A DNA stretch of 64,000 nt from Minisyncoccota bacterium (GCA_041659785.1 JBAZXO010000003.1:1099-65098); one strand, 5' to 3'. Positions 18,942 to 46,000 are shown, counted from the first letter of the stretch. Numbers and translations are program-made. Notes: a model not told the origin generated them from the letters alone.

Positions 18942-19881
18942 CCCACACAGCAGTATTAGCAAGAGATACGATACGATTGTTCGATTTTTCTAAGACACAA
19001 AGTTCACCTTGTTCTATATGTCCCTTGAAATCCCCGCCTAGGCGGGCAGGCTTCAGGGCATTATCTAATGCATAGCCCAAAGAAAGAGAGGAGGAGTCCA
19101 CTGCATAAGAGGTTAAAATAACAAAAAGTGGTTTATCGCTCAAAACTTTCTGCACCTGTAAAAGAAGCTTCGGCAACATTTCTTCTAGCTTCCATATCTC
19201 TCCCTTAGGTCCCCTGCCAAACTTCGGCGGGTCCATAATCACACAGTCATATTTATTCCCTCTTTTTTCTTCCCTCTCTAGAAATTTAATAGCATCATCT
19301 TCTATAATACGCATTGGTAAATCTTTTAGGTCACCATTCATTTCTTGGTTTTCTTTAGCCCATTTTAAAGTTTGCTTAGATGCATCCAGATGTGTAACTT
19401 CTGCACCTGCACGAAGAGCAAAAAGGCTTGCGACTCCAGTATATCCAAAAAGATTTAGAAACTTTATAGGTTTCTTTGCATTTTTAATTTTCTCCTCTAT
19501 AAAATCCCAATGGCTCGCTTGTTCAGGAAAAAATCCCAAATGTCTAAAGGGTGTAGGTGAAGCTAAAAACTTTACCCCTTTATAAGACATCTCCCATTTT
19601 TTATCCTTGTCAAACATCGGGTGTTTGACAAAAGTCCAGCCAGCTTTTGCCCCAGTTTTAGAGCTCCAAAATTTACCATCTGCCTTTTTCCACATTTGTT
19701 GAACACTCGGTGTTGAACATTTGGGCCAGACGGCATCTTCGTATGGACGCACGAAAGTATATTTACCAAATTTTTCTAACTTCTCTCCCTCTCCTGTATC
19801 TAGAAGCTGATAGTCATTTTCACCCGCCGACGAGGAGGGCCAATCTTTTGCACAAAAAATGCTTATATCTTTTTTTATCAT
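18931..19881 (-). CDS. class I SAM-dependent rRNA methyltransferase (RlmI/RlmK-like)
   Basis: NLFGYTGVASLFALRAGAEVTHLD (SAM-binding motif I) and IMDPPKFGRG (DPPxF motif IV) typical of RlmI-type 23S rRNA m5C methyltransferases. Contains palindrome cccgcctaggcggg at 19032-19046. Confidence 0.6.
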   Translation of the reverse strand: MIKKDISIFCAKDWPSSSAGENDYQLLDTGEGEKLEKFGKYTFVRPYEDAVWPKCSTPSVQQMWKKADGKFWSSKTGAKAGWTFVKHPMFDKDKKWEMSYKGVKFLASPTPFRHLGFFPEQASHWDFIEEKIKNAKKPIKFLNLFGYTGVASLFALRAGAEVTHLDASKQTLKWAKENQEMNGDLKDLPMRIIEDDAIKFLEREEKRGNKYDCVIMDPPKFGRGPKGEIWKLEEMLPKLLLQVQKVLSDKPLFVILTSYAVDSSSLSLGYALDNALKPARLGGDFKGHIEQGELCVLEKSNNRIVSLANTAVWATL

Positions 19882-20699
19882 ATTAAAAATTCAATTACGT
19901 CGCCATCTTGTACGATATATTCTTTACCCTCAGTTCGGACCCAACCTTTTTCACGGGCTTTAGCGAAACTCCCTGCTTCAATCAACTGATCATATGATAC
20001 CACTTCTGCACGAATAAACTTCTGCTCGAAATCTGTATGTATCGAACGGCCAGCAAAAGGTGCTGTCGCCCCACGCAAAGTGGTCCAAGCCCTGGATTCA
20101 TCTTCGCCTGTCGTAAAAAAAGTAATCAAATTTAATAAATTATATCCGGCCTTAATAAGGTTATCTAAACCTGTACCAAAAATCGGATCAACTTCTAGGT
20201 ATGGCCCAGGGAGCTTAGATATGAAATCTTTTTTTACATTCTCTGCTGCTTCTGAAGTGTTTAAAACATAAAGCGTGGGTTTTTTAATTCCCGCTTGTTC
20301 TAATTCAAAATTTATAACCTCTATATCAAAAAGTGGATCAATATGATCGTGAACATGAATCATATCTTTATCTTCAAAAATTCGCACAACTTCGATAATC
20401 GCATCCACCTCACGTATATGTGAAAGAAATTTATTACCGAGTCCTGCCCCTGTAGATGCGCCCTTTACAAGCCCGGCGATATCTACAAACTCCACCACTG
20501 CTGGAATAGTTTTCTTTGATTTAGATATAGCAGATAATTTAAGAAGTCTATCATCTGGCACAGGTACGATACCGACAGAAGGATCAATAGTACAAAAAGG
20601 ATAATTCTCTGCCGGCACACCCTTCTTAGTAAGAGCATTAAAAAGCGTGGATTTTCCCACGTTTGGCAGACCTACGATTCCGATTGATAGTGAAGACAT
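19878..20699 (-). CDS. ychF: Obg-family ATPase YchF (short form)
   Basis: N-terminus IGIVGLPNVGKSTLFNALT (G1), DIAGLVKGAS (G3), C-terminal TGS-like DGDVIEFLI. 273 aa. Start overlaps the 3' end of the upstream recombinase ORF by about 60 nt. Confidence 0.8.
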   Translation of the reverse strand: MSSLSIGIVGLPNVGKSTLFNALTKKGVPAENYPFCTIDPSVGIVPVPDDRLLKLSAISKSKKTIPAVVEFVDIAGLVKGASTGAGLGNKFLSHIREVDAIIEVVRIFEDKDMIHVHDHIDPLFDIEVINFELEQAGIKKPTLYVLNTSEAAENVKKDFISKLPGPYLEVDPIFGTGLDNLIKAGYNLLNLITFFTTGEDESRAWTTLRGATAPFAGRSIHTDFEQKFIRAEVVSYDQLIEAGSFAKAREKGWVRTEGKEYIVQDGDVIEFLI

Positions 20700-22284
20700 T
20701 GATATTTGATTCTATTGGAATATATCCATAAACTTGTAATTTTTCCCTTGTTCCGACCACCCTATCTATAACTGTTCTGATTATGTCTTTTTTTGAGCTA
20801 AAGTTCAAGTTATTACTTAATGCTTTTGATACTTTTTGAGTGAAGGTTTTTATCTCAGATAATTTCGGTAGTGTTTTTTCTCCAATTTTCTGATTTTCTA
20901 AATCAGCATTAGCTATTTGATTTTCGAATAAAGATATCTTCTCTTTAACAGGAGCAAGATATTCTTTTAATTGTTCAATTGTAATTACACCAGAGCCATA
21001 AGCCTTAGCGTAACGACCTTCCTGGTCTTTAAGTTTAGATATTTCTTTTCTAGTCTCTTCTGTATTTATAACAGAAGTACAATTTCCATTATTTTGATTA
21101 TTGATCCAACGTTCCACTTGCTTGGTTAATAATTCTGGTGAACTCATAAGTTCTGTAGTTTTTTCCCACACTAACGGATCTAATATCTTGGCATTTAGGC
21201 CCTTCTCTTTACAACTAGGCTGTAAAGGAAAACTTTTTATTCTATCAGTGCAACGATAATACAAATGTTTACCACGCTGTGGTCCTTCCCCTGCTCGTCT
21301 TTTACCACAATTGCACCATATTTTACCAGCCAAAAGATACTCATTTTTAGTATTTCTTTCAGACATTTCAAAATTTGATCTTAATATCTGTCCGACTCTA
21401 TTAAATAATTCTTCATCTATAATTTTAGGAGTAGGGATTTTTATCCATTCACTTTCTGGTTTCATTCGTCTACTGGTTTTCTTAATTTTTTTATATCCCT
21501 CTTTCTTCGTTGGATTAACTGGTATCGTAGCGTAAGAAGCTCCATAATGGCCTTCACCTATATATGTCCTATTCCTTAATAACGTACTCAACGTGCTAGT
21601 GTTCCAAACACCTCTTTTACTTTTACGAGGAGGTATGCCTAACTCTTGAAGTCTTCTGACAATACCTCTTAATCTTAATCCATCATTATCTACCCAAGAA
21701 AAAATACTTTTTACAATTTGAGTTTCTCTTTCATTTATTTCATAGTGACCTTGAAGAAAATCGGCATCTCCTCTCTTCCCTTTCTTTACTATAAAATTAT
21801 ATCCGTAAGGAGCTTCACTAACAATGATATGTCCCTCTTTTGCCTTTCGTACTTTACCTAGTCTAAATCGTTCTTTTATTTTCATTCTTTCGTATTCAGT
21901 AAATACTCCTCTCATTTTATACATAATAATATCCTCGTCTGTTTTTGGTTGTGGAATCGTAACGAAAAGAACCTCAATTTCTAATTCTTTTAATTCCTCT
22001 ATCACCACTTCCTGCCATGCACCTCGTCTTGCTAATCTATCTGGATCATAAATTAAAACTGCGTTCCATTTTTTTAGTTTTGCATCCATGCGAAGTTGAT
22101 CTAATGCTGGACGTGCAAGAGAATCACCACTCCAACCATTATCAATATATTGCTTGACTATGATATAGCCATTCTTTTCAGCGAATTGATTAACAGCAGA
22201 AAGTTGCGTTTCAATAGTTCCCTCGTTTTCTTGGTTTGAAGTTGAAACTCTTCCGTATGTTGCGATTAATTTTATTTTTTCCAT
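20638..22284 (-). CDS. large serine recombinase (phage-integrase type)
   Basis: N-terminal resolvase catalytic domain with YGRVSTSNQ (catalytic Ser) and DRLAR. Recombinase domain, Cys-rich zinc ribbon (CNCGKRR...YYRCTDR) and C-terminal coiled coil. 548 aa. Confidence 0.9.
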   Translation of the reverse strand: MEKIKLIATYGRVSTSNQENEGTIETQLSAVNQFAEKNGYIIVKQYIDNGWSGDSLARPALDQLRMDAKLKKWNAVLIYDPDRLARRGAWQEVVIEELKELEIEVLFVTIPQPKTDEDIIMYKMRGVFTEYERMKIKERFRLGKVRKAKEGHIIVSEAPYGYNFIVKKGKRGDADFLQGHYEINERETQIVKSIFSWVDNDGLRLRGIVRRLQELGIPPRKSKRGVWNTSTLSTLLRNRTYIGEGHYGASYATIPVNPTKKEGYKKIKKTSRRMKPESEWIKIPTPKIIDEELFNRVGQILRSNFEMSERNTKNEYLLAGKIWCNCGKRRAGEGPQRGKHLYYRCTDRIKSFPLQPSCKEKGLNAKILDPLVWEKTTELMSSPELLTKQVERWINNQNNGNCTSVINTEETRKEISKLKDQEGRYAKAYGSGVITIEQLKEYLAPVKEKISLFENQIANADLENQKIGEKTLPKLSEIKTFTQKVSKALSNNLNFSSKKDIIRTVIDRVVGTREKLQVYGYIPIESNINVFTINRNRRSAKRGKIHAF

Positions 22285-24809: not shown

Positions 24810-25757
24810 TTACTGCCAACAAATATCAGATTCCCCTCCTGTCGTTTCTTCTAAGTATTGTTCTACTTCACTAATCCCACCTATGGCATCAATTAAACCT
24901 AATTCTTTAGCTTTGGATCCTAGGACTGTTGAACCATCAGCAATGCTTCTAACTTTCTCTATGGGTATATTACGATTCTTAGATATCGCCTCAACAAAAT
25001 TGCCAAATACGATATTTACATCTCTTAGCATTAGTAGTCTTTCTTCGTTTGTAAGAGGTTTATCTGGGGATCCAGAATCCTTAAATTTACCTGAATTAAT
25101 TTCTTCAAAAATATATCCATCTTTCTTGTTCTTCTCAGCTACACTCACATAAGAGGCTGTTATACCAATAGCTCCTACATTAGAGTTTTTAGATGCGAAT
25201 ATCTTGTCAGCACTACTTATGGCCCAATAAGCGGAAGATGCCCCTACCTCTCTTATAAATGCCACGACAGGCTTCTCACTTCCCTTTATGGCATTAGCGA
25301 CCTCTTCACCTCCTGTCGGTGAACCCCCTCCTGAATCTACCTCAATTACAATTGCCTTTATTTTTTCATCCTCATTTGCTTGTTTAATTGCCCAAATAAT
25401 ATTTTGACTTGCTACTGTATTATAATCAAAAAGAGAGTCATTCTCACTGTGGTTTGGAATGTAAGTTAATAGCGTTCCGTGTAGTTCTATTCCCATGATA
25501 GAGCAATTATCATTTGTTGTGTCGCTAGAATCACTAATAGAAGAATCTGGGGATGAGTTATCTTTAAATGGGCCGACTATAAAAAGAGAATAAAAAAGAA
25601 TAGTAAATACGGTGACGATTAAGATAATTTTAACTATGCTTCCAATTAAATAGCCAAAGATATTAACATCACTCCATTTTCTAAAGCTTAACCATAATTC
25701 ATTTGTTTTGTTAAAAAGTTTTTTCATTTTTAAGTGCTTAGTTAAATAATAACACAT
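24810..25757 (-). CDS. sppA: signal peptide peptidase SppA-like (S49 family, 36K type)
   Basis: N-terminal TM anchor, then GGSPTGGEEVANAI...KPVVAFIREVGASSAYWAISSADKIFASKNSNVGAIGITASY matching S49 catalytic-region motifs. Confidence 0.65.
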   Translation of the reverse strand: MCYYLTKHLKMKKLFNKTNELWLSFRKWSDVNIFGYLIGSIVKIILIVTVFTILFYSLFIVGPFKDNSSPDSSISDSSDTTNDNCSIMGIELHGTLLTYIPNHSENDSLFDYNTVASQNIIWAIKQANEDEKIKAIVIEVDSGGGSPTGGEEVANAIKGSEKPVVAFIREVGASSAYWAISSADKIFASKNSNVGAIGITASYVSVAEKNKKDGYIFEEINSGKFKDSGSPDKPLTNEERLLMLRDVNIVFGNFVEAISKNRNIPIEKVRSIADGSTVLGSKAKELGLIDAIGGISEVEQYLEETTGGESDICWQ

Positions 25758-26177
25758 TTATTTATATCTCTTATAACATTCTTCTCTGTCTGTCTTTGCC
25801 TTAGCACGTATTTGGTCTGCCTCTATTTGTAGCTCTTGAAATGAAGGAGGCTTACAGTATTCTTGGAGTGTCATTTTGCCAGAAGTGATAAGATTATTTA
25901 CATTACTACCATGATCAGAATTAAGACAATCATTTTGTGATTCTGGTGAACTTAAATCTATGGCCAATTCACGATTCCTTTTTATTTCACTTTCAGCATT
26001 ATCGTTGATTTCATCAATACATTGATTCAATGGTTCCTTTGCCAGTTGATCCAACTGAGCCCTTTCTTCTAAAATTGCTTTCTCTTTATTTTCTTGAATA
26101 CTAGAAGAAATTATTTTATATCCGACTAAGGCAAGAAATACAACTCCTATTAAAACAATGATTTTTTTATTGTCCAT
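25758..26177 (-). CDS. membrane-anchored coiled-coil hypothetical protein
   Basis: 139 aa, N-terminal TM helix (IIVLIGVVFLALVGY), charged helical remainder with several Cys. Confidence 0.35.
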   Translation of the reverse strand: MDNKKIIVLIGVVFLALVGYKIISSSIQENKEKAILEERAQLDQLAKEPLNQCIDEINDNAESEIKRNRELAIDLSSPESQNDCLNSDHGSNVNNLITSGKMTLQEYCKPPSFQELQIEADQIRAKAKTDREECYKRYK

Positions 26178-27977: not shown

Positions 27978-27992
27978 AATATATAAACATTA

Positions 27993-28027
27993 AATGGTGA
28001 GGTCCTTTGGGCTTCACCATTTTTTGT
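27993..28027 (+). terminator. rho-independent terminator between convergent genes, possibly bidirectional
   Basis: aatggtga-ggtcctttgggct-tcaccatt stem-loop followed by TTTTTG. Sits between the + strand 27741-27977 ORF and the - strand gene ending at 28039. Confidence 0.55.
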
Positions 28028-28038
28028 GCTACTTTATA

Positions 28039-29391
28039 TTATTTTTTTATTCTTACTGTCACTAGATATTTAATAGGATCTATCGTTACACCTGGTATCT
28101 TGTTTGCAAATGGATTTGGCATTTTATATATAAATGGTGTTTCAGATAGATAATCAAAGACAATATATAAATGATAATTTGGGTCCTTCCGAGCAATTGT
28201 TATTTCATTCTCAGAGATAAAAAATCTAAAGGCAATAGATGGAATGTTTCTAACAGCTTTAACTTCTATGTGTTTTTCTGACCCGTCAAAATCAAAAGAT
28301 AATACATCATAGCCTAAAGTATCATCCTTGAGAGAAACTTGTTCAACTTTATTTACCATCTTAGAATAATTTTTATTTAACTCCCCTATTTCATGTTTTA
28401 TAACAATTTTTTCAGCGAAATCTCCAGCTGTTCTGTTATTGCTATCTCGGAGTTCAAAATCAATTTTTTGTAGCCTAGGAGATGTTTTTCTTCTTGTTTT
28501 TACACCTAGATCAGCATCTTCATCAATTTCCATTTCAATTATTTGGGGCTTTATGTTTGAGATATCAGGGAGTTTTAATCCTCCAGTTATAGTATTAACT
28601 ATTTCTTCTTGTTCTTCCGTCGTTTTTTTCTCTAAGCTTTCAATAACCCTTAGATAGTTAGGGTTAATGGTATAAATCTGCCATCCATTGTTTGTATTTA
28701 AATAATTAAAATATCCACTATCACTAAAATCTCGTAGAGAAAAACTCTCTAAAATAATCTCAATATCTTTTTTTGATAGATTAGATGTAATTTTTTCACC
28801 TTCCTTTTTAATATAAGAAGAAATTAGGAGCATGTCAAAAAATCTCTTAACATTATCTGAGAAATCATCAATACTTAATTCTTTGCTTTTTTTATCTAAA
28901 ATATCTGCATAAGTAGTTTTGTTTTTAGAATTTCTGTATTCGTGTATTAAATCTACAACAAAAGGGACTTCATTTTTATCATTTATCCAGCACACAAATA
29001 ACTTATATTCATCAAAAGATATATATTCTAAAGAGTGTAAAAGAGTTAATAACACCTCCATCGGAGCAATTTTAATTGACAAATTATCGTTTAATTTTGG
29101 ACAATCTAAATATACTTTCATTATCTGCTCATCTAAAATCTTTTGTTTATAAAGAGAATTTAAAAAAGTTTCTCCAGCGTTTGAAATTTGTAAATTGTCC
29201 CCACCAAGATTAACTATCAATCCAAGATATCTCAAAGTAATACTATTACGTGTCGTAAGTTCGTGAAAATCATTAGTCAAATCATTATAGATTTTATTTA
29301 CGATATCACTTGTATATTCTTTCTGTTTCGCTTTCTTCCAGAAATTCTTGGTTCCTTTATTGTCTAAATATTTTTTATATTCTTCAATCAT
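28039..29391 (-). CDS. DUF3883-domain restriction-endonuclease-like protein (last gene of RM-like operon)
   Basis: C-terminal GYDVLSFDFDGSEKHIEVKA...FFISENEITIARKDPNYHLYIVFD matches the DUF3883 (NO VEIN C-terminal, PD-(D/E)xK-like E-V-K) signature. N-terminal roughly 300 aa unassigned. Overlaps the C5-MTase stop by 4 nt. Confidence 0.6.
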   Translation of the reverse strand: MIEEYKKYLDNKGTKNFWKKAKQKEYTSDIVNKIYNDLTNDFHELTTRNSITLRYLGLIVNLGGDNLQISNAGETFLNSLYKQKILDEQIMKVYLDCPKLNDNLSIKIAPMEVLLTLLHSLEYISFDEYKLFVCWINDKNEVPFVVDLIHEYRNSKNKTTYADILDKKSKELSIDDFSDNVKRFFDMLLISSYIKKEGEKITSNLSKKDIEIILESFSLRDFSDSGYFNYLNTNNGWQIYTINPNYLRVIESLEKKTTEEQEEIVNTITGGLKLPDISNIKPQIIEMEIDEDADLGVKTRRKTSPRLQKIDFELRDSNNRTAGDFAEKIVIKHEIGELNKNYSKMVNKVEQVSLKDDTLGYDVLSFDFDGSEKHIEVKAVRNIPSIAFRFFISENEITIARKDPNYHLYIVFDYLSETPFIYKMPNPFANKIPGVTIDPIKYLVTVRIKK

Positions 29392-30500
29392 AGTTTTAAA
29401 ACTTTGCGAATCTTTAACGCAATAGATTGTGCTAATAATGGAGGTACTGAATTTCCAATTTGTATACCAACTGAACCCCTACTACCATAAAAGACAAAAT
29501 CATCATCAAAAGATTGTATCCGAGCTGCTTCACGGGGTGTTAGCGCTCGATGTTGTAGTGGATGAGTTACACGACCCACAGAAGGAGTATCGAATCTTGT
29601 GGTTATTGTATATGCAGGTTTGTTCCTGTTAATTCTTCCGAATGCCCCACTGTGTATAGATTTTGTTTGTAGTGCTAATGGTAAACTTGACCTTCCTTCA
29701 CCTTCTTTAATGCTTTTAAGTATCTTAATTATTCTAGGGTCATGTTTAGTCGCTTGGTGGTTATATATCTTTTTACTTTTTCCACGTCTTTCTTTTTGAT
29801 ATTGAGTAAGATTTTTATTAAAAGCATACTCAGATTCAAACTGTCCTGAGCCTGCTGATACCTTTGGTAAATCTAAAATCGTTTCTGCCACAGTTACGTA
29901 TGGTCTTTGTTTTTGAGGACCATGTGTCTTGTCTGGAAAAAAATCTTCAGGATCTATACCTATCCTATTACCTATAAACACTGCCCTTCTTCTTAATTGA
30001 GGAACACCATAATCTGCAGCAAGTAAAACATGAACCTTGGTTTCATATCCAATTTCTTTAAACTTTTTTATTATTTCATTTTTTACAGCTCCTCCGTGGA
30101 TATTTAGCATTGCTGCTACATTTTCCATAACAAATATTTTGGGCTTAACGTCTTTTACTACACGAATAAATTCCTTAAAAAGTTCATTGCGTGGATCATT
30201 TAAAAACGCACCATCATTACGTATTCTGCGACCTGCCATACTAAAACCCTGGCAAGGTGGCCCCCCAACAACAACACAAATATCTTTTTCTCCATTTAGT
30301 AATTCTTTTGAATCTACTTTAGTTATGTCTTCAACGATCATTTTTGTTCCAGGATGATTTTTTATGTAGGTATTAGCAATTTCTGCATTATATTCATTCG
30401 CAGACACTACATCAAAACCAGCCTTCTTAAAACCCACAGAAATACCACCCACTCCTGCGAATAAATCTATTATTTTTAGTTTACTTTTCTTGCCAGCCAT
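29388..30500 (-). CDS. DNA (cytosine-5)-methyltransferase
   Basis: Motif I DLFAGVGGISVGF, motif IV GGPPCQGFS, motif VI ENV, motif X QIGNSVPPLLA. 370 aa. TGA stop. Confidence 0.9.
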   Translation of the reverse strand: MAGKKSKLKIIDLFAGVGGISVGFKKAGFDVVSANEYNAEIANTYIKNHPGTKMIVEDITKVDSKELLNGEKDICVVVGGPPCQGFSMAGRRIRNDGAFLNDPRNELFKEFIRVVKDVKPKIFVMENVAAMLNIHGGAVKNEIIKKFKEIGYETKVHVLLAADYGVPQLRRRAVFIGNRIGIDPEDFFPDKTHGPQKQRPYVTVAETILDLPKVSAGSGQFESEYAFNKNLTQYQKERRGKSKKIYNHQATKHDPRIIKILKSIKEGEGRSSLPLALQTKSIHSGAFGRINRNKPAYTITTRFDTPSVGRVTHPLQHRALTPREAARIQSFDDDFVFYGSRGSVGIQIGNSVPPLLAQSIALKIRKVLKL

Positions 30501-32070
30501 ACTCTTGTAATTTATTTTTTTTATAATTAAAGTTGTTTTTTAATAAGTTTTCTATATTTGTAACTTCACCTTCTTTGTTAGTATACAAATTATTTTCCAC
30601 AATGAAAGGTATTAGTTTCTCATATAAAGAATCAGAAGTCAGATAACCATTATTTTTTTCTATCCAAGATTGAACCTTTCTTACAATATTCTTTTCACCA
30701 TCCTCGTTGTTTAACTTCTTTTCCTTAGCTTTTACTTTCGTATCTTTTATAAAATTATAAACAAAATCACCCCTCAATGTATTGTTTCTATTGAGTCCCT
30801 GCGTACCAGAGGCAACAGCCTGTTCTTGATAAACAACGTTTATAAGATGAAAACCAGCACTAGTCACAGCATCCATTACAGCCTTCCAAATATTTAGATT
30901 TCTATTGTGGAAAGTAAATGAGAGATACTTTTCATCCTTTAAAACTCTATATAATTCAGCATAGACCTTTTTCATTCTTGATGAATAATCTTCGTATTTT
31001 TTATTACGATACGGATCATATATAATTTCACTTTCATAATTTACTTTATTTCTAAGCCACCCATTCCAAAACATACTTAACCCTAAATAAGCAATACTAT
31101 CACCGTAGGGTGGATCAGTAAATATATATGAAACAGATTCTGATTTAATATTTTTTAGATTAGTAGCATCAATATTAAAGATTTGAGCATCCTTTGAGTT
31201 AAATATTCCTGCTACTTCTTGTTTGCCTTTTTTGATTTTATGGAATCGATGCTTAAAACTATTAAAAATATTTTTTTCTGTATGAATTTTTGGAGCCCAT
31301 AATTTACTAATAACCCACCCCGACTTGCCATTAACTGATTCGGGATTACCAGGTATCATTTTAGAAACGTTTGGCAACATGGAAGTAAAACATAAAAGTA
31401 TTAGATTTTTAACTTTTTGGTCCTTAATTTCATCTATGTCTTTAATTATTGAACCAAGCACCACTAATGCACGATCTGTAAAAAATTCATTCAGCTTACT
31501 TTTCCCATTTCTCTTAACAAATTTTAAAATTTCGTCTTTCGGATAGAAGATTTTATTTTCCTTATCTAATTTATGGAAAACCTCTGTTGCTTTTTTAAAA
31601 ACTTTCTGGTCATACGAGTCTACATTTTTTATGAACTTACCACAGCTATGGCATAATGCTCTAATTTTCGAGAATTCTTCGTGATCCCAAATTGAATTTT
31701 CAAAGGCTGTAATTCCACCACACTTAGGACATTTAGTATTATATAATTCAATAAACTTTTTATAGTTCTTTTCGTATATATAATCAAATGCTTTTTCAAA
31801 TTCTTCTAAGTTAACGTTATTTATTGTATTTTCAGTAATAAAACAAGCCATAGGATTTAAATCTATTCCTATCGCCTTACGATTATTTTTAATTGATTCA
31901 ATAATAACGACCCCACTTCCCATAAAGGGATCAAGAACCGTTTCCCCTGGCTTTGAAAAATTCAAAATATAGTCACTCACTACATTGTGTGGTTTTCTCC
32001 CCCAATACTTATGCATCATGTAGTGAGTTGGGTGAGTTTTTGCGGTAATGTTTTTATTTATTTTATTCAT
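30481..32070 (-). CDS. amino-DNA methyltransferase (N6-adenine type, DPPY; alpha-like motif order) with zinc-ribbon insert
   Basis: N-terminal FMGSGVVIIE (AdoMet motif I) and later IFTDPPYG (motif IV). CPKCGG...CHSCGK zinc ribbon. Overlaps the C5-MTase start by 20 nt. Confidence 0.8.
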   Translation of the reverse strand: MNKINKNITAKTHPTHYMMHKYWGRKPHNVVSDYILNFSKPGETVLDPFMGSGVVIIESIKNNRKAIGIDLNPMACFITENTINNVNLEEFEKAFDYIYEKNYKKFIELYNTKCPKCGGITAFENSIWDHEEFSKIRALCHSCGKFIKNVDSYDQKVFKKATEVFHKLDKENKIFYPKDEILKFVKRNGKSKLNEFFTDRALVVLGSIIKDIDEIKDQKVKNLILLCFTSMLPNVSKMIPGNPESVNGKSGWVISKLWAPKIHTEKNIFNSFKHRFHKIKKGKQEVAGIFNSKDAQIFNIDATNLKNIKSESVSYIFTDPPYGDSIAYLGLSMFWNGWLRNKVNYESEIIYDPYRNKKYEDYSSRMKKVYAELYRVLKDEKYLSFTFHNRNLNIWKAVMDAVTSAGFHLINVVYQEQAVASGTQGLNRNNTLRGDFVYNFIKDTKVKAKEKKLNNEDGEKNIVRKVQSWIEKNNGYLTSDSLYEKLIPFIVENNLYTNKEGEVTNIENLLKNNFNYKKNKLQEYGWQEK

Positions 32071-32131
32071 ACGAATTAAACGTCATAATATTTGTTATCA
32101 CACAATAGATAAAAAATTGATTCAATATCAA

Positions 32132-34606
32132 TTACCGCCCTTGTTCATGATAACTTAAAATATCCTTATCTGAGTATAACATATTTAAATACAATTCTGG
32201 AGCATTTTCTGTATACATAATGAGTTTTCCTGAATAATAAAGCTCCTTAAACTTTTTCACCCTTTCCCTAACTTCAGTTATATATTCTGGCCTAATTTTT
32301 ATGCCGTTTTTGTCTTTTTCGAGATATTTATTGTAATGAACAATCCCATAAAATCTTGGATCAATATGATTCTTTGTTTCAAGAAGTTTTTGTATCTGAT
32401 GTCTTTCTTCGTCTTCTCTAAATCGTAATATTCTTTCTACAACCTCCTTTGATTCAGTGTGCTCTTTTGTGATTGCTAAAAAAGTATTAAATTCAAATTT
32501 GCTAATAAATGGGTCCGAACCATAATCATCTAGTAATTGTATTAAAACATCATATATAAATAAAAATGGATAGATTTTAAAATCTTTAAAAGAAACACGT
32601 TTTGTTGATTCAATATATTTATTATAAGAACCATAAATTGGATTCCAATATAATATTTTTTCAAGTTGTAAAGTAAGAATGTCTTGATAAATATCCACAT
32701 TTGAGAAATCTTTTGTCTTTTTACAAATTTCTTCAAATGAAATTGTCGGTTTGAGTGGAGATTCAGCTGATATAAAACCACTGATCTTGCTTAACATTAA
32801 AGCACGGAAACCTGCTGTCATATTTTTACCAGGATATTTATCATTAACAATCTTTTGTATTTTTTTTATAAATTCTTTTTCATCTATATTTGGATTATCT
32901 TTGATAATTTTAATCCCCTCAAAGTTAACTTGAAAATACTGATTCTGTTGCCCACGTTTCCAATATAAATTATCTTTTGTCCACTTGTCTAAGTATATTG
33001 AATACTCTCTCCATTCTTTTGCAATTACGTCATTTCTTATATCTTTCGAATATACAACTTCATTGCTTTTGAATATCTCAACAACTTCAGCATCAAAAAT
33101 AACTTCACATCCATTTAAGTCATAGATAAAAAGATCTTTTCCATCTTTATGGATTTTTTTAAGTCCTCTAACCCCATTTTTTATATCAAGTCCTTCAAGA
33201 ATTAAATTTGCAGTACGATAATTCCCTATGAAATCAAGAATCAAAACATTTTCTTTTTTAGGAGCAACACGTAAACCACGACCCATATGTTGAATAAATA
33301 TTGTTTTTGATTCTGTGGGCCTTAAAAATAACAAACAAGAAACATCAGGAATATCGACACCTTCGTTGAACATATCTACAACAAAAGCCACCTGACATTT
33401 ACCATCTCTAAAGTGTTTTATTAATAAAGTTTTATCTTTATCTTCAACTCCTTCAAGCCCTAGGCTACGAGAATGTACGGCAATCGCATTAATACCTGCA
33501 GATTTAAATTTAGTAGCACATCTTTCAGCATGTTCTATGGATGCACAAAAACCTATAGTTTTTCTATCACCAACAACTTCTTTAAATTTTTTTAAAATAG
33601 CTTGATCTCTTTCATCAATCAAAAGATGCTTATTAAGGTCCTTAGTATCATACTTAAATCCATTAAAATATATGTCGGAATAATCAATACTATCTTTAAA
33701 TCAAAAATATTGGAAAGGTACTAAATAACCTTGCTCTATGGCCTGTTCCTGCCCCATCTCAAATACAACATTGTTGTTATAAAATCCTAATATATCTTTT
33801 CGATCCATTCGATCTGGTGTTGCTGTTAATCCTAGAAAAAATTTCGGTTTAAAATAAGAAAATATTAATCCATAGGTAGGTGCAGCAGTATGATGTGTCT
33901 CGTCTATAATTATATAATCGAAATAGTCTGGAGAAAAACTTTCAATATGTTTCTTTTTACCTAATGTTTGTATAGACGCAAATAATATTTTTTTATCTTT
34001 CTCTTTCTGTTTTCCATTATAAAAACCAAGGTCATTTTTTCTACCAGGAAAGACTCGCTCGAATGATTCTTTGGTTTGCTTAAGAATTTCATTAATATGA
34101 ACAACAAAAAGTATTTTCGAGGCTTTAGTGTCTTTTGCATCTAAAGCAGACAATATTGTTTTACCTAAACCTGTTGCAAGTATTACGACAGCCCTATCTG
34201 ATCCGTTTTCCCTTGTTGTATTAAGATTAACAAGTGCCTTTTCTTGAGCTTCGTGTGGTTTAATTTCTTTTCCTCTCTTTAGATAAAGATTAAAAAGTTC
34301 TTCGTCTGCTATAAATTGTCTTCGTAAAAAGTATTTTACTTTTTCTCTATCTTTTGTAATCAAGTCACTACCAATAGTTATTGTTTTAAGTAATAATTGA
34401 TTTGTACTTACTAACTGGCTAGTTCCCTCTTTACTTTCATTGAAATTTATTAAATAACTAGCATAATCTGTTTTTATCTCTAACAGAGCAACATCACCAT
34501 CGGTGATGTTTGTAATGTGTTTTTTAAAATTTGTACTTAAATCATCAAAAAGAATCTCGAGGAGATTTTTTAAATCTATATTTTTAATATCAGAAAGTAA
34601 ATTCAT
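32132..34606 (-). pseudogene. SF2 DEAH-type helicase/restriction-subunit-like gene split by a single in-frame TGA (N-half 33701-34606, C-half 32132-33622)
   Basis: N-half: ILATGLGKT (motif I), IIDETHH (motif II), LGLTATP (motif III). C-half: FNEGVDIPDV (motif V), QHMGRGLR (motif VI). Both halves share one reading frame, separated only by TGA at 33701-33703, then 26 sense codons to a TTG start. Confidence 0.65.
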
Positions 34607-34609
34607 GGA

Positions 34610-36802
34610 TTATTTATTATCCAGGGTCTCACTAGCAAAAATTGCAGTGTGCATATTTTTAGGAGTAAGAATTACTGGCCACCAGAATGGTGAACCCATC
34701 CAGCCTTGTTCTTCTTTGCCATTTACTCTAATTAACATTAATACTGGAATGTCATCTGCTATCCTTTTAGCAATAGTAAGGGCCACTTCTCCAGTACCAG
34801 ATCCAGCATCGTCTGTAAATCTGCCATCTGATTTACAACGAGATAAATTACTATCAGTTCTCACCACAACTCCAACTTTTCCGTTTTGTGAAATACTGAC
34901 CGAGTTTTTTGATAAATGTTCTATACTTGCTTTAAAAGCCTTAACATCCCATTCATACCCATTTTGTTCAGAAATAAAAGTCTTTTTTATTTTATCTAAA
35001 ATAGAAAGGGATTGCTCAACTGGAATTAAAAAATGATCTGATGTTGTTTCAGCTTGTAACCCTAAAATTTCTTTATCTAAATCCTCTATATCTTTTTTTA
35101 TGTTACTTTTATAACCCGTCTGGAAACCAATAGGTAAAAGTCTTTTGTGGGGTTTAAGAGTAGTTATACTAGAAAGCATTATTTTGTTAGGCGAACAAGG
35201 TACAAGTTTATCACTCGTGTCTTTGCGTATAAAATAAATACCATTATTATGTGAACCATTTAGAAAAGCCTCCCTTAATGCATTATCAAATTCATGTATG
35301 CGTTTCATTACTTCATAGATACTACGAGTCGTATATAAACGAGTTACTGCTAAGTCCTCTTTAGATCTAGCACCATACATGCGACAGTGCTGTAAGACAG
35401 TGTCTTGCTGAAATTTTTTAGGATTTCTACCATAGTAAAAACCTATCATGTTTTTAATCGTAATCCCACGATCCAAAATTTGACCTCCTATAAAAATATT
35501 TAGTGGAGTTCTTAATCTAAGCTGTCCCTTGCTGTCCAAGAGCGCTTTTACATCTTTATCTGAATTAACTTTTTCTACTACAAGCATCCCTTTTGTTAAA
35601 ACATCTGATACTTCATGCAAAACAACAGAAAAAATTGGTAACTGCAACCCAGAAAGTTCCACAGATGGTTTTAAATCATTGTATGCTTCCTCAACTAGAA
35701 CATTAAATAATGCTTGGTCCTCTTTTGCAATCCTAACTAGTTCTTCGTTAAGTTTATTCACAACTTCTTCTTGCCAATTATGAGAATTTCTAGATTGTTC
35801 AGTGTGAATTAGAAAACTATAATTTTCTTGTTTTTCTCCTTTATTTTCTTGCTGAATGCGACGTATACTACCACCAACAATAAAATTCATTATTGAATTT
35901 CTAATTGTTCTTGTAGATGGACTTGTAAAAACTTCTTCTATCTTGAAAGATCTACGATCGGCCCTTTTAAGAGTCTTCCTTACTTTCAAAATTTCTAATT
36001 CCTCAATTGGAACCTCTTTGTAAACATGAAATGCTGTCGTTCCCTCTTCCTCGCTTTCAATAAAATAGTAATCACCTCCCACATAATCTTTATGGATAGG
36101 AACTAACACAGTGAAAGCTGGTCGTTTGGGTAAAAAAAGTGATTCTGAATCTTCGCTATCATCCGATTGTAAATATAACGAATATGGTGTTGCTGTGACT
36201 TGTAATAAATCTGATTGTTTAACCGTGTTTCGTATATCGTCTATTTGTTGAGCAATTTTTCCTTGTTCAATTGAACCACTTTCTTTTTCTTTATGAAAGC
36301 TAATGCTTGCAAAATCTGCTTCGTCGTCAATTATGAGAATCTTTTTATTTTTTAAATCAGGATAAGTGGTAGTAAGTGTGCTTAACACATGTCTAAGATT
36401 ATTAGTTTCTTTCTTTGCAACAATAATCAACTTTTGACTTAACTCATATGGCACCATATTTTTAGGGAAAAGCATGATGTCATGTATTTGAACTTTACTA
36501 TCCTCCTCGAATACCTGAAAATCCTCATGTAATCTTTTTAATGTCTGTTCAGTAAGTGGCTTAGTACCTTTTGTAAGTATTATCGTAATATCGTAATCAT
36601 TATCAAATGCCAAAGCCATTACACCCAAAAAAGCACGAGTTTTTCCACTCTGCACCTTACCAAGTAAAATACCAGGCTTTTTCAAGTTTGTGTCAGAATC
36701 AATCAGTTTAACAACAGTTTCTTCTATACAACTTTTTAAAGAGTCATCATCTTTTCGTTTATTGGTTAGAGTATTATAAAAATATCCTTTTTTCATATTC
36801 AT
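34610..36802 (-). CDS. P-loop SF2-like NTPase resembling Z1-domain proteins (first gene of RM-like operon)
   Basis: 730 aa. LLGKVQSGKT Walker A near the N-terminus, LIIDDEADFAS (DEAD-like Walker B), LLQVTATP (motif III), C-terminal LQHCRMYGAR (motif VI-like Q..R..G.R). Z1 assignment is from memory of the GxVQSGKT signature. Confidence 0.5.
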   Translation of the reverse strand: MNMKKGYFYNTLTNKRKDDDSLKSCIEETVVKLIDSDTNLKKPGILLGKVQSGKTRAFLGVMALAFDNDYDITIILTKGTKPLTEQTLKRLHEDFQVFEEDSKVQIHDIMLFPKNMVPYELSQKLIIVAKKETNNLRHVLSTLTTTYPDLKNKKILIIDDEADFASISFHKEKESGSIEQGKIAQQIDDIRNTVKQSDLLQVTATPYSLYLQSDDSEDSESLFLPKRPAFTVLVPIHKDYVGGDYYFIESEEEGTTAFHVYKEVPIEELEILKVRKTLKRADRRSFKIEEVFTSPSTRTIRNSIMNFIVGGSIRRIQQENKGEKQENYSFLIHTEQSRNSHNWQEEVVNKLNEELVRIAKEDQALFNVLVEEAYNDLKPSVELSGLQLPIFSVVLHEVSDVLTKGMLVVEKVNSDKDVKALLDSKGQLRLRTPLNIFIGGQILDRGITIKNMIGFYYGRNPKKFQQDTVLQHCRMYGARSKEDLAVTRLYTTRSIYEVMKRIHEFDNALREAFLNGSHNNGIYFIRKDTSDKLVPCSPNKIMLSSITTLKPHKRLLPIGFQTGYKSNIKKDIEDLDKEILGLQAETTSDHFLIPVEQSLSILDKIKKTFISEQNGYEWDVKAFKASIEHLSKNSVSISQNGKVGVVVRTDSNLSRCKSDGRFTDDAGSGTGEVALTIAKRIADDIPVLMLIRVNGKEEQGWMGSPFWWPVILTPKNMHTAIFASETLDNK

Positions 36803-37718
36803 ATCATAATTAATTAAATCTCAATACTAACTAAGATTTTTATATTTCAAAACACTCTAAAAAGTATAGCACTTTCAGCTTAATTTTTAAAGGGTTTTTA
36901 GGTAAATTTCGAAATAGACATTTAATAGAACTGTAGTAAAACTAATTTGTTTTTATTTATTTTTTATGTTATAATATATTCATACGATTGAAAAAGTTAG
37001 CTGTTAAAAGACAACAAACTTCACCCCCGAGCATAAAGATTTAAGATATAAGGTTAAGTTGAGTTATGTATAAAGATTTAAGATTAAAGATAAAGTTATG
37101 TTATGGAAAACATTAACAAATCTTTGTTTTTGGGGAACTCAAATAAAAAAAACTCCAATAAAACCTTGTATTACGATTGATATCCGAATATGAGGCAAAC
37201 CACTAATGAGAGATTCAGGTGTTGATGAAAGAGAGCTGGGAAAATGGTGTTCGACTTCCACCCAGCCTTGTGATCAGCATCGGAGTCTCACTGATTGATA
37301 TAGGAATAATTAAGTAAAGTAACGACATATCACCGATATTACTTTATGAAGGGGGTTCGCTATTTAAATCACACTGTTAATTGCATATCTATTATTTTTG
37401 AGCAAATTTTATTTAACACCTATACGTATTATAAATATTCTAAGTTACGGTGTTTCGAATAACGAGAAGCTAAAAAACACATCCAAATCTCTATCAAGGG
37501 GTAAGTCGAGCTCGTACCCTAAAGAGTATTTATTTAGCTCGCCTAAACCCATAATCAACCCCACTCTTTAATGGAGGTGGTATTTTAATAGTAAACTCAA
37601 AAGGAATAAATTTATCAGTTATAGAATGTCGTGGTGTGCCTGCTCCATTCCAATTGATAGTGACATAAGAAAACTGTAGCAAATTACAAGCTAAAAATAA
37701 AGAATATATTTAAAAAAT

Positions 37719-41307: not shown

Positions 41308-43032
41308 TTATTTATTTATTTCACTTATATTATCAACAACGTAACGACGTGATTTTTCTAAATTTTCTTTCATCTTTTTAAGAGTGTATTCTGTTTCTGC
41401 TATTTCACTCTCACTAAATTTACAGTCAGCCGTGTCTTTAAGTAATTTATCTAGATCATTCCTTAAACCATCAAAAATATTCAAAACATCCCTTTCTGCT
41501 ATAGTTACTCTTTTTTCTAATTTTCTACGCCATTTATAATAAGTAAAATAACCTGCACCAAAAGCGCCCAATAAAATAACAATCAAATAAATAAAAAACC
41601 ACGTTTCACTTATTTCTAAACTACCCAGAACAAATACCGGCCTTTGTTTAACAGTAATACTCTCTGAGGTAGCAGGAAAACTTGAAGCCATATTTTTATC
41701 CCGAGCTGTCGCAAGTAAATTATATTCCCCAGGATTTTGAAATTTATTTATAAGAATATCCCAATTACCATTACTATCTACTGATGTGGTCTGCTCAGCG
41801 ACAATTTGCTTTTGACTATTTTGAACTTGAGCGATAATTTCTACTCCAAGAGAAGCTGTTCCTCCAGCATGAATTCCCTCTTCGTTGGCAACCATGCTAC
41901 GACTTACATAAGTAATCACTGGTGAAACAATTGGTAGAATTTCTAAAGTTTCAGTATCTGAAGTAGAATTTCCAGCTTTATCTACAGCTGAAACATTAAG
42001 CTGATGCTTCCCCGGAAGAAGTGGAAAAAATTGATATTTGGTTAAATTGGTACTGGCAACAATAACTCCATCTAAACGAACAATATAATTATCAATACCG
42101 GATGTTAGGTCACTACTAGCAAAATTAATAGTTGGCTTTGGCTCAGCAGTTTTAAAACCTTCATTAGAAATAATTTTAAAAGGATTAGGTGGTGTAGCGT
42201 CTATGGCTAAACGATAATGTAAAGTAGGACTCCAGCCAATATTATTTTCTAAACGTATATGAAGATACCACACTCCATCAGATAAGGCTGAGAAAATCTT
42301 ATTACCTAGTAATGCTTCAGCACTTGCTAGTGGTGTAAAAATAGGATTTTTATTTATAACCACAGCAGCACTTATAGTATCAGAGCTTATATTCCAGCTA
42401 GCCTTAAAACTAGCTGAGTGATTATTCCATTTTGTAGGATCTGGATAAAATGGAACACTGAGACCCATCTGGGCTGGTAACTCTTTTGCTATTGTTGCTG
42501 CTTTTTTTATCCTCTCTACATTCACCGCTTGAAAATCAGCAGTAGAAGGAATATTTATATCTAAACCCTTAGCGGTAGTGTAAACATTGCTTCCAGTTCC
42601 ATCACTCGCAGTTATTGCACCGTCAGTAATCCCCAATCTACCTACCCCACTACCTTTTACCCTAAAAGCTATATGCATCAGTTTAAGGCTTGCTCCAGTA
42701 AAACCACTTGTAGATCCTCCGACGAAATTTATTGAACCTTTAACATTATCAAAAACTGGTTCTTGTAACCAAAAAGAAAAAACAGAATTAGTGCGATCAA
42801 TATTTGTAACTTCTAACAAGTTGGCGGGGAAAAAAATCGTAGCTTGAGCAGTATTAACATCTTGACCCTCACTATTTATTGAAACTAATACTACTACATC
42901 ATCCTTGGGTGAAGTAATATTTTTTTCTAATGACAAGTCTAAGGTCGCAGCATGAGCTAGTATCGGCAAATAAAACAAGAAGCCTACTATAAAAACAATA
43001 AGACAAAATTTAATTTTAAAATAAAGTTTCAT
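41308..43032 (-). CDS. membrane-anchored surface protein with N-terminal cohesin-like domain, Ig-like domains, C-terminal TM helix and cytoplasmic coiled coil
   Basis: Signal peptide. Residues roughly 30-170 (DLSLEKNITSPKDDVVVLVSINSEGQDVNTAQATIFFPANLLEVT...LKLMHIAFRVKGSGVGRLGITDG) follow the cohesin beta-sandwich pattern. TM WFFIYLIVILLGAFGAGYFTYY near the C-terminus. Confidence 0.5.
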   Translation of the reverse strand: MKLYFKIKFCLIVFIVGFLFYLPILAHAATLDLSLEKNITSPKDDVVVLVSINSEGQDVNTAQATIFFPANLLEVTNIDRTNSVFSFWLQEPVFDNVKGSINFVGGSTSGFTGASLKLMHIAFRVKGSGVGRLGITDGAITASDGTGSNVYTTAKGLDINIPSTADFQAVNVERIKKAATIAKELPAQMGLSVPFYPDPTKWNNHSASFKASWNISSDTISAAVVINKNPIFTPLASAEALLGNKIFSALSDGVWYLHIRLENNIGWSPTLHYRLAIDATPPNPFKIISNEGFKTAEPKPTINFASSDLTSGIDNYIVRLDGVIVASTNLTKYQFFPLLPGKHQLNVSAVDKAGNSTSDTETLEILPIVSPVITYVSRSMVANEEGIHAGGTASLGVEIIAQVQNSQKQIVAEQTTSVDSNGNWDILINKFQNPGEYNLLATARDKNMASSFPATSESITVKQRPVFVLGSLEISETWFFIYLIVILLGAFGAGYFTYYKWRRKLEKRVTIAERDVLNIFDGLRNDLDKLLKDTADCKFSESEIAETEYTLKKMKENLEKSRRYVVDNISEINK

Positions 43033-43068
43033 TTTTTAAATTTAATAAAATTAATTAATAATAAGTGA

Positions 43069-46000
43069 CTAAAACTGACTATTTAAAGCTCCTATAAAGA
43101 TACTCAAATCCGCAGAATCAACTTTACCATCATTATTCATATCGAGACTTTGACGAAGCTTTGTGTCAGTAGAACTATAACGAGCCATAAAAATACCCCA
43201 ATCTTGAATATCAACCTTAGCATCACCATTCAAATCTGCCTTGGGCACAAAAGTATTAATTATAAGAAATCTTTTCTCTAAAGAATAATCTGATGCATTA
43301 CCTTTAGTATCTACTTGACGAACACGCAATGTATGAGTACCTAAATCAAGATGGAAAGTATTGTATGTAATATTATAATTACCATCATTGTCAGCTGTTA
43401 CCATTTGGCCTGTCTTCACACCATCTATCATTAAACCAATTTTATAACCAGGCATTGCCTGACCTGTTATACCCATAAACGTACCTCGAGTCACAGATGA
43501 CTGGATCAAATCAACAGTAGGAGCCATTAAAATAGTTTTAATTAATTTATCATTAACCCCCAAAGTAAAAACTTTTGTTTGAGCAATATTTTGATTTTTA
43601 TCATAAACGACAAGAGCAAAAGAATTAACACCAGACGGTAGCATACCATTATATTTCACATTAAAATTACCACTTGCTCCGCCCGTAGCACTAGCACTAA
43701 CAGGAACCTTTTCACCTTCCCTAATAGCCATTATCTCTATATCAGCATCTGGGAAAGCTCTACCAGAAAAAGAAACCGTCGGAGTAACCGCCCCTGAAAC
43801 TCCACCTCCCCCACCAAGAGATATAACTGGAGGGATAGCTGAAAAGACAACGTCACTAGTAGCAGAAAAATCAAGAGTTGTTGGTGGTACGACATCACTT
43901 AAACTAAGGTCAACTGTTTCAACCACAGAATCAGTAATATTTTTTGTACCTATGCCGTTTACAATATTTACAAGTCCCGCACCTGTAGCACTGCCTGAAG
44001 TGACTAGATTTATATTTCCATTAAAAGTATCGGCTCTATTGTCCAAATCATCGACTGCTTCAATAGTAACTATTGTTGTTTGTCCGACTTGAACATTAAG
44101 AGGATCTAGGATCTTAAACTTTGTGGCAACTATAGGTGCTGTTGCAACTGTAAAGCTATTAGATATTCCAGTTTCTGTTCCTCCTGTACGAGTTGCCGTA
44201 ATTGTAAACAATCCAACATTTGAAATATTTACTGTTCTAGAAGAAAGTACACCTAGAACAAAAGCTGGAGTTGTGCCACCACCAGACGAAAGTGTTCCAC
44301 TTGATGAGATATCAGCTGTTCCAATGAAACCAGTAGCGATATTCCCGAAGGTGTCTTTCGCAGTGATACTTATATCAAATGATGTACCTACAGTTTTTGT
44401 TGAAATATTTCCACCTCCGCTAGCTTCAACAATAAAACTAGAAACTGATGCGGGATTTATATTAATTAGGGATGTGCCATTCGTAATTATTATTCCAGGA
44501 CCAAATACAGGATTATCAGAGGCATATATATTTAAAGATCCTACGAGGGTTCCAGTAAGATATACATTAGTAGAGTTTGATCCTTCTAAAATAGAAATAG
44601 ATGTAATGGATGCACCACCACTTAAAGAATCATAAAAATTAGCTGTACCGACGGGTGCGTCATTGTATAAATGAATGGTATCAACGCCAGAAGTGACATT
44701 GTTGTCATATTGATCTTTTCGACTAATGGAATATGTAATTCTATCACCAGCTACAGCGCTAGAAGCTCCAGTCATAATAAATTTAGCAGTAGGTCCTGGC
44801 GTGAAAGTGATATTTTTTGTAGAAGAAACATCTAACCCACTTCCCGCCGTGTCTTCTAATGCAAGAGAGACGACTTCTGCTTTTGTATCAACAATATTAA
44901 TTGCGCCGATTCCACTTGTGATGGTAACAATTCCACCCGGAGTAAGACCAGGACCAGTAGGAGATGTGTGCAGTGTTACACTACCATTATAAGAAGTATC
45001 AATATTTCCAGCGCCATCTTGCATTTTTACTTCAATGGAGGCATTTACTCCAACTACCGTTGACACTGGATCACTAATAACAAAACGAGTAGCAGAAATG
45101 GGCGCAGCAGAAACAGATATAGTGTCTGTGATGTCAATAATACCTGTATTACCATCAGCAATCGGTGTACCATCAGAAACAGTAACATTAATATTGTAAT
45201 CACCTGTATCGTTTGAGTATAAATAAAAATTATTAGACGAAGATCCATTTGCAATTACAAGAGATGTGATAACAGCCCCATCAATTGCTGAGTCATAAAA
45301 TGCTGTGGTACTGACAAGTCCAAGATTGTGGTAAAGATAAACAGTTAAGTCGCCACTTGTGACAGCATTATTATGAGCATCAAAACGCGAAACTGTGTAC
45401 ATAGCACGACTTCCTACATGCATACTACCAGGATGATTTAATGTAAAATGATTTGTGAGTCCAGGAATGACTGTAAATGTTTGAGCATTTGATGTGCCGC
45501 CGCCTGGCGTGCCGTTTAAAACAGTTATATCAAAAGTTCCAGCGGTAATTAAATCTGTAGCTGGAATTGTGGCAGTTAATTCTGTCGAACTGACATATGA
45601 AGTAACTCGAGCAGATCCGGCAAAGTTTACAACAGAACTTGAGATGAAATTGGTTCCATTAACGGTCATAGTAAATTCTGCGTCACCAGAAATTTTTGAA
45701 GCTGAAGAAAGAGAAGTAGTGGTCGGAACTGGGTTAACGATAGAAAGTGTTTGAATATTCGATGTGCCACCGCCTGGAGTCGAATTAAAGACAGTAACGT
45801 TTATATTCCCAGTAGAGGATAAATCACTAGTTAAAATTGTTACGGTGAGTTGTGTATTATCAATATATGTAGTGGTCCGAGAAGATCCGTTGAAATTTAC
45901 TACAGAACCAGAGACAAAGTTTGTTCCATTAACTGTTAAAATAAGATTACTATCTCCTACATTTTTCGAAGATGGAGAAAGAAAAGTAATTACTGGAACT

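Follow-up and report, generated by a model that had tools for sequence, protein, structure and literature searches.

A putative composite restriction-modification cassette with a Type IIS-style core in an uncultured candidate-phyla-radiation bacterium

Do five closely packed genes from different restriction and helicase families form one undescribed defence system, or a known kind of restriction system to which further parts have been added? The question is raised by positions 28039-36802 (minus strand) of a stretch of 64,000 nucleotides (nt), hereafter the window, from an uncultured candidate-phyla-radiation bacterium (Minisyncoccota bacterium, GCA_041659785.1, JBAZXO010000003.1:1099-65098). 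A first-pass annotation had described the segment as an operon of a Z1-like nucleoside triphosphatase (NTPase), an SF2 helicase, an N6 DNA methylase, a C5 DNA methylase, and a DUF3883 nuclease-like protein, in a layout that was not canonical Type I-IV. On sequence comparison, we read the locus as a composite, mobile restriction-modification cassette comprising a Type IIS-style three-gene core and two added motor genes, and assign this reading a probability of roughly 0.6.

Domains were assigned by Pfam, PADLOC, and NCBIfam searches, which bore out the five gene families and their coordinates, and CglI H-type motifs were defined as in PMC5861437. The neighborhood survey covered ~30 related loci, denoted here by L-numbers, and combined a search seeded with the DUF3883 protein, an exact-protein look-up, and a metagenome scan. 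Two alignments of the helicase family (A3, shallower, and A4, deeper) and one of the endonuclease (A2) were used. Six minus-strand open reading frames (ORFs) were identified across the segment, the helicase gene being split into two of these. In gene order, the Z1-like NTPase and helicase genes are separated by 3 nt and the helicase and N6/N4 methylase genes by 61 nt, and the C5 methylase gene shares 20 nt with the N6/N4 methylase gene and 4 nt (ATGA) with the endonuclease gene. Three junctions thus fall within the gaps or overlaps of 3-20 nt first described; the 61-nt gap is no distance for translational coupling.

The conserved unit among the related loci is three genes: the N6/N4 methylase (30481-32070, minus strand, 529 residues; N6_N4_Mtase, 1.5e-21, in two stretches), the C5 cytosine methylase (29388-30500, minus strand, 370 residues; DNA_methylase, 1.5e-75), and the restriction endonuclease (28039-29391, minus strand, 450 residues). 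Their order was kept at every locus with enough sequence. The trio stood alone at no fewer than seven loci (L087 from Liptonbacteria, L093, L103/104, and L106-108), and this core has the standard Type IIS layout, so the view that no canonical type applies is not supported. In L088, the trio is preceded by a small helix-turn-helix gene; such genes serve in the control of Type II systems. Motifs are intact in both methylases of the window. The N6/N4 enzyme has FMGSG (residues 49-53), CPKC (114-117), CHSC (140-143), and DPPY (319-322) in permuted order, with a Cys4 zinc ribbon, and its product is probably N6-methyladenine (m6A). The C5 enzyme has FAGVGG (14-19), PCQ (82-84), ENV (126-128), and QLRRR (168-172). 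In L116, the 2 methylases are fused into a single 908-residue ORF (L116:7291-10017), a fusion that strongly supports joint action of the pair. An asymmetric Type IIS site is usually protected on both strands by one adenine (or N4) methylase and one C5 methylase, and by analogy the 2 enzymes may protect opposite strands of one site.

The endonuclease was correctly placed in the DUF3883 family by the first-pass annotation, which overlooked its N-terminal domain (residues 1 to ~235), a BspD6I/BpuJI-like DNA-recognition domain. The C-terminal domain (residues ~310-450) is a DUF3883/NOV_C PD-(D/E)XK nuclease with matches to Hjc resolvases and to minimal restriction nucleases. Residues E327, D362, and E376-x-K378 are invariant across 28 homologues, and the window copy has all of them. 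Full-length members are few: among 1.84 billion representatives they fall into ~20 clusters at 50% identity. The nuclease domain by itself is common (3,810 matches at E <= 1e-10). The models of PD-T4-1 and PDC-S36, two single-gene candidates with DUF3883, match residues ~276-448 alone (E 4e-25 and 3e-22) and therefore show a shared nuclease domain and no more. An apparent truncation in L001 (148 residues in the deposited gene call) was rejected as a gene-calling difference, the 450-residue ORF being intact. In YenY4I, DUF3883 has catalytic activity (PMC6765204), and the catalytic domain of BpuJI is Hjc-like and recurs in HSP90-like, helicase, and McrB-N fusions (PMC1874659). Because the HSP90-like and McrB-N fusions among its homologues are DUF3883 architectures, the BpuJI catalytic domain looks like the same type as DUF3883/NOV_C. 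Since the window protein carries both a BspD6I/BpuJI-like recognition domain and a DUF3883 nuclease, it is classed as a putative Type IIS-style restriction endonuclease, and the core as a predicted Type IIS-style system in which an endonuclease with separable recognition and catalytic domains is accompanied by 2 adjacent, co-inherited methylases.

The SF2 helicase gene (32132-34606, minus strand; 824 codons, one of them a nonsense codon; ResIII 3.3e-39, Helicase_C 4.5e-13, RE_AlwI 1e-6) belongs to a family that is a frequent add-on to this core. In L086, L092, L094-100, L102, L105, L112, and L117, the trio is directly preceded by an intact orthologue of ~820 residues (819-830), and in L116 by an 845-residue relative. 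The C-terminal ~260 residues (residues ~533-792; 32231-33010, minus strand) are homologous to the recognition domain of the endonuclease. Comparison of A4 with A2 by hhalign aligned helicase residues 533-768 with endonuclease residues 3-199 over 187 columns (probability 92%, E 6.6e-7), and the shallower A3 gave a probability of 56% (E 1e-4); the N-terminal segment of Pfam RE_AlwI also matches this region of the helicase. Only weak, scattered matches were returned by BLASTP, and the profile-profile comparison with the deeper alignment was needed. At the other end of the protein, the N-terminus, relatives of ~850 residues (41-60% identity) have a PF18741 nuclease domain in which the motif RIDFVI...AIECDG..YHA is conserved. 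The window subfamily aligns to the PF18741 region without the catalytic residues and ~30 residues beyond, and its nuclease domain is vestigial. SauUSI-type PADLOC models (mREase_IV) align with the motor region only (model positions ~212-640 of ~950; 1.3e-78 with the intact L089 copy), and the family layout of nuclease, motor, and reader looks SauUSI-like. In L113-115, a full-nuclease helicase is convergent to a C5 and N6 methylase pair, with no separate endonuclease. The helicase family is accompanied by methylases, which implies that cleavage would be modification-blocked rather than modification-dependent.

Other genes were also observed around members of this cassette family. In most relatives that have the helicase, the first gene downstream of the endonuclease gene encodes a conserved DUF3644 protein of ~333 residues (Pfam 1.6e-44; RNKIEHRF motif; L092:11358-12362, likewise L094-L099 and L102); it is absent from the window and is a possible further optional component. 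AbiJ-like and Shedu genes follow the endonuclease in L116, where the helicase has a PF18741 nuclease domain, and DUF2779 proteins (~490-510 residues) were found within a few kb of 3 members that otherwise differ from one another (L086:13425-14921, L093:8124-9656, and L113:14153-15631).

In the window itself, the helicase is not the one intact gene that had been annotated. It is present as 2 ORFs in the same frame (33701-34606, 301 residues, and 32132-33622, 496 residues) with one in-frame TGA between them at 33701-33703 (minus strand), where codon 302 has changed from GGA to TGA (translation PFQYF*FKD). The relative in L089, 96% identical, has a single 824-codon ORF with GGA (Gly) at this codon, and the remaining 95 differences are mostly synonymous; Gly302 is invariant in both A3 and A4. 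An alternative code with TGA read as Gly or Trp was considered, and recoding was rejected because of the GGA in L089, the invariance of Gly302, and the use of TGA as the stop of 2 other long ORFs (29388 and 19878), long ORFs being otherwise free of TGA. We read TGA302 as a very recent nonsense mutation, or as an assembly or population variant. The window helicase is a predicted pseudogene, and a five-component system would be unable to work as such here.

The second motor gene, that of the Z1-like NTPase (34610-36802, minus strand; family as named by the first-pass annotation), encodes a Walker A motif QSGKT (residues 51-55), DDEAD (159-163), histidines H333 and H341 eight residues apart, and a QxxR motif VI, QHCR (471-474), all invariant in 35 homologues. 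A scan of the genome collection gave 567 confirmed matches to the family, of which the best 80 span many phyla. Members 72-82% identical to the window protein adjoin HsdM and HsdS in L004-006, a Type III-like Mod/Res pair and Shedu in L007, and a complete CglI/NgoFVII-type set with its own 627-residue H subunit in L008, and members 51-59% identical adjoin MvaI/BcnI Type II systems (L013, L018, L025, and L037). A large, mobile family in such varied neighborhoods counts against a specific partnership with the core. A separate possibility is that all five genes make up a single obligate defence system, multi-subunit and previously undescribed, whose function requires the two NTPases, the two methylases, and the nuclease together. 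The five genes share a strand and have tight junctions (3, -20, and -4 nt), and the gene-neighborhood comparison called for at the outset showed that their order recurs identically in 3 lineages, 20-25% apart at the protein level and in different surroundings. No PADLOC system model covers the set of five. Set beside the promiscuity of the Z1-like family and the loci where the core stands alone, an obligate five-gene system seems to us improbable.

Under the composite reading, the endonuclease would bind a specific, probably asymmetric site through its BspD6I/BpuJI-like N-terminal domain and cut nearby with its C-terminal DUF3883 PD-(D/E)XK nuclease. The site would be protected on one strand by the DPPY N6/N4 methylase and on the other by the C5 methylase. 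The core would be self-sufficient, as it appears to be in relatives. The helicase may load at the same sites, translocate on ATP, and bring or activate the trans-acting endonuclease, and the result would be long-range, ATP-dependent cleavage of the kind known from CglI (R2H2) or SauUSI. In the window subfamily, the trans-acting endonuclease would have taken over the role of nuclease, leaving the helicase to provide ATP-driven communication from site to site; in this window, the helicase would be knocked out by G302*. Several observations weigh against this account. Core loci without the helicase in relatives indicate that the dependence of the endonuclease on the helicase is not obligatory. 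L116 has both a nuclease-motif helicase and a separate endonuclease, which weakens a simple transfer of the nuclease in trans, and this locus may be an intermediate. The helicase stop, moreover, could be an assembly or population variant. A further step is to regard the helicase and endonuclease together as a "split" ATP-dependent enzyme, in which a SauUSI- or Type ISP-like protein ceded its nuclease function to a Type IIS endonuclease with a paralogous reader; we offer this tentatively, as a possibility that may well prove wrong, and if it were true, 2 proteins would be addressed to one site.

The cassette is located within an island of ~17 kb that extends from a large serine recombinase at its left end (20638-22284, minus strand; Resolvase 6.5e-28, Recombinase 3.4e-19, Zn_ribbon_recom; phrog_95 integrase 4.3e-86) to about 37.5 kb. 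The same island was found in L001 between different flanking genes, and the cassette has serine recombinases as neighbors in L001, L086, and L116 as well, which agrees with the earlier proposal of a recombinase-marked island and a mobile module. A blastn comparison with L001 and L112 shows collinear flanks around a cassette (28038-36892) that runs the other way in the window, where about 340 nt of ancestral upstream sequence are missing. Junction sequences place the left breakpoint at 28028-28038, just past a terminator-like hairpin (27992-28022) that follows the upstream plus-strand ORFs, and the opposite cassette end at 36892-36950. The cassette ends were searched for long terminal inverted repeats as a possible cause of the inversion, and none were found; the sole repeat pair spanning them (28109 and 36601, 20 nt) lies within coding sequence and is conserved in L001. 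Promoter and terminator scans gave counts not above those of shuffled sequence, and no tRNA gene marking an integration site was found anywhere in the window. Least probable among the alternatives, and only slightly behind the obligate system, is that the cassette is a decaying remnant that lost restriction once it had been inverted and its helicase had acquired the nonsense codon, and in which only the methylases still matter, as orphan or epigenetic enzymes, as the premature stop, the inversion relative to L001 and L112, and the lost ~340 nt might suggest; the methylase motifs and the invariant endonuclease residues are present in the window copy.

Within and around the island, further features were noted. 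At 19878-22284, a short (273-residue) ychF-like GTPase gene has a predicted start that lies within the 3' end of the recombinase ORF by ~60 nt, an overlap that may mark the insertion point of the island. Phage-like parts occur at 24810-26177, namely an S49 peptidase with similarity to phrog_53, a head maturation protease (6.5e-43), and a weak match to an Rz-like spanin (3.4e-5); the island is possibly what remains of a prophage, or an integrative element related to phages. Outside it, a very large ORF of 2484 residues (4041-11495) was found in what is a small-genome candidate-phyla-radiation bacterium, along with a 1248-residue protein (InlB B-repeat, Big_13, and C-terminal dockerin type I) beside a 574-residue Big_13/Y_Y_Y protein (41308-46815). 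The products of these very large ORFs are probably surface or attachment proteins.

If the composite reading is true, this cassette family is a case of restriction systems put together from interchangeable parts, in which the same DNA-recognition domain serves both a nuclease and a motor. The nuclease domain of a motor would decay once a trans-acting nuclease is present, and a CglI-type motor would move between unrelated restriction-modification types. No new category of immunity would be opened.

We compared the locus with known systems that combine similar parts. CglI, NgoAVII, and BceSIV are ATP-dependent R2H2 enzymes (PMC4267653, PMC5737866, PMC5861437) whose R subunit joins a PLD nuclease to a B3-like DNA-binding domain, whereas the corresponding window protein joins a BspD6I/BpuJI-like domain to DUF3883; a true PLD and B3 protein was found in L008. 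SauUSI carries a PLD nuclease, an SF2 motor, and the DUF3427 modified-cytosine reader in one chain. The window helicase motor is most similar to the SauUSI-type PADLOC models, and its family has the same order of nuclease, motor, and C-terminal recognition domain; unlike SauUSI, the family has a PF18741-type nuclease (vestigial in the window subfamily), an AlwI/BpuJI-like reader, and methylases alongside. In Type III systems, Res combines an SF2 motor with a C-terminal nuclease and Mod provides specificity, whereas the window helicase has a recognition-like domain of its own and no C-terminal nuclease, and the methylases are stand-alone and Type II-like. DISARM is marked by DrmA/DrmB (DUF1998) and PLD, and BREX by PglZ and BrxC. 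The earlier statement that DUF1998, PLD, and PglZ are absent was upheld: none of them was found in the operon or its flanks, and the PADLOC matches to DrmMII and PglX reflect generic methylase similarity. Equally sound was the remark that Mza partners are absent. Mza systems combine a full-length MzaC with MutL-like, AIPR, and other partners; no MutL/MORC-like or AIPR genes were found in neighboring ORFs, and the MzaC profile NF041933 scored 76.4 bits on the Z1-like NTPase against a cut-off of 1500 (residues 154-513), with the PADLOC MzaC model matching residues 416-517 only. MANTIS/Gao_RL, which shares the dual-ATPase theme (methylase, 2 ATPases, and nuclease), was rejected: its components include an AAA+ ATPase and a BREX-related methylase, neither of which appeared among the PADLOC matches. 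BsuMI consists of 3 R subunits (YdiR, YdiS, and YdjA) and 2 C5 methylases. The architecture of the window endonuclease is that described for BpuJI, a Type IIS enzyme (5'-CCCGT), with the AlwI/Nt.BspD6I/MlyI family as relatives in kind. Among the papers searched, none was found that describes a Type IIS core accompanied by a helicase with a reader domain. The closest known systems therefore appear to be BpuJI together with CglI/NgoAVII, rather than Mza or BsuMI (no BsuMI-specific model or sequence was compared), and the locus would represent not a new class but a known kind of system in a new form.
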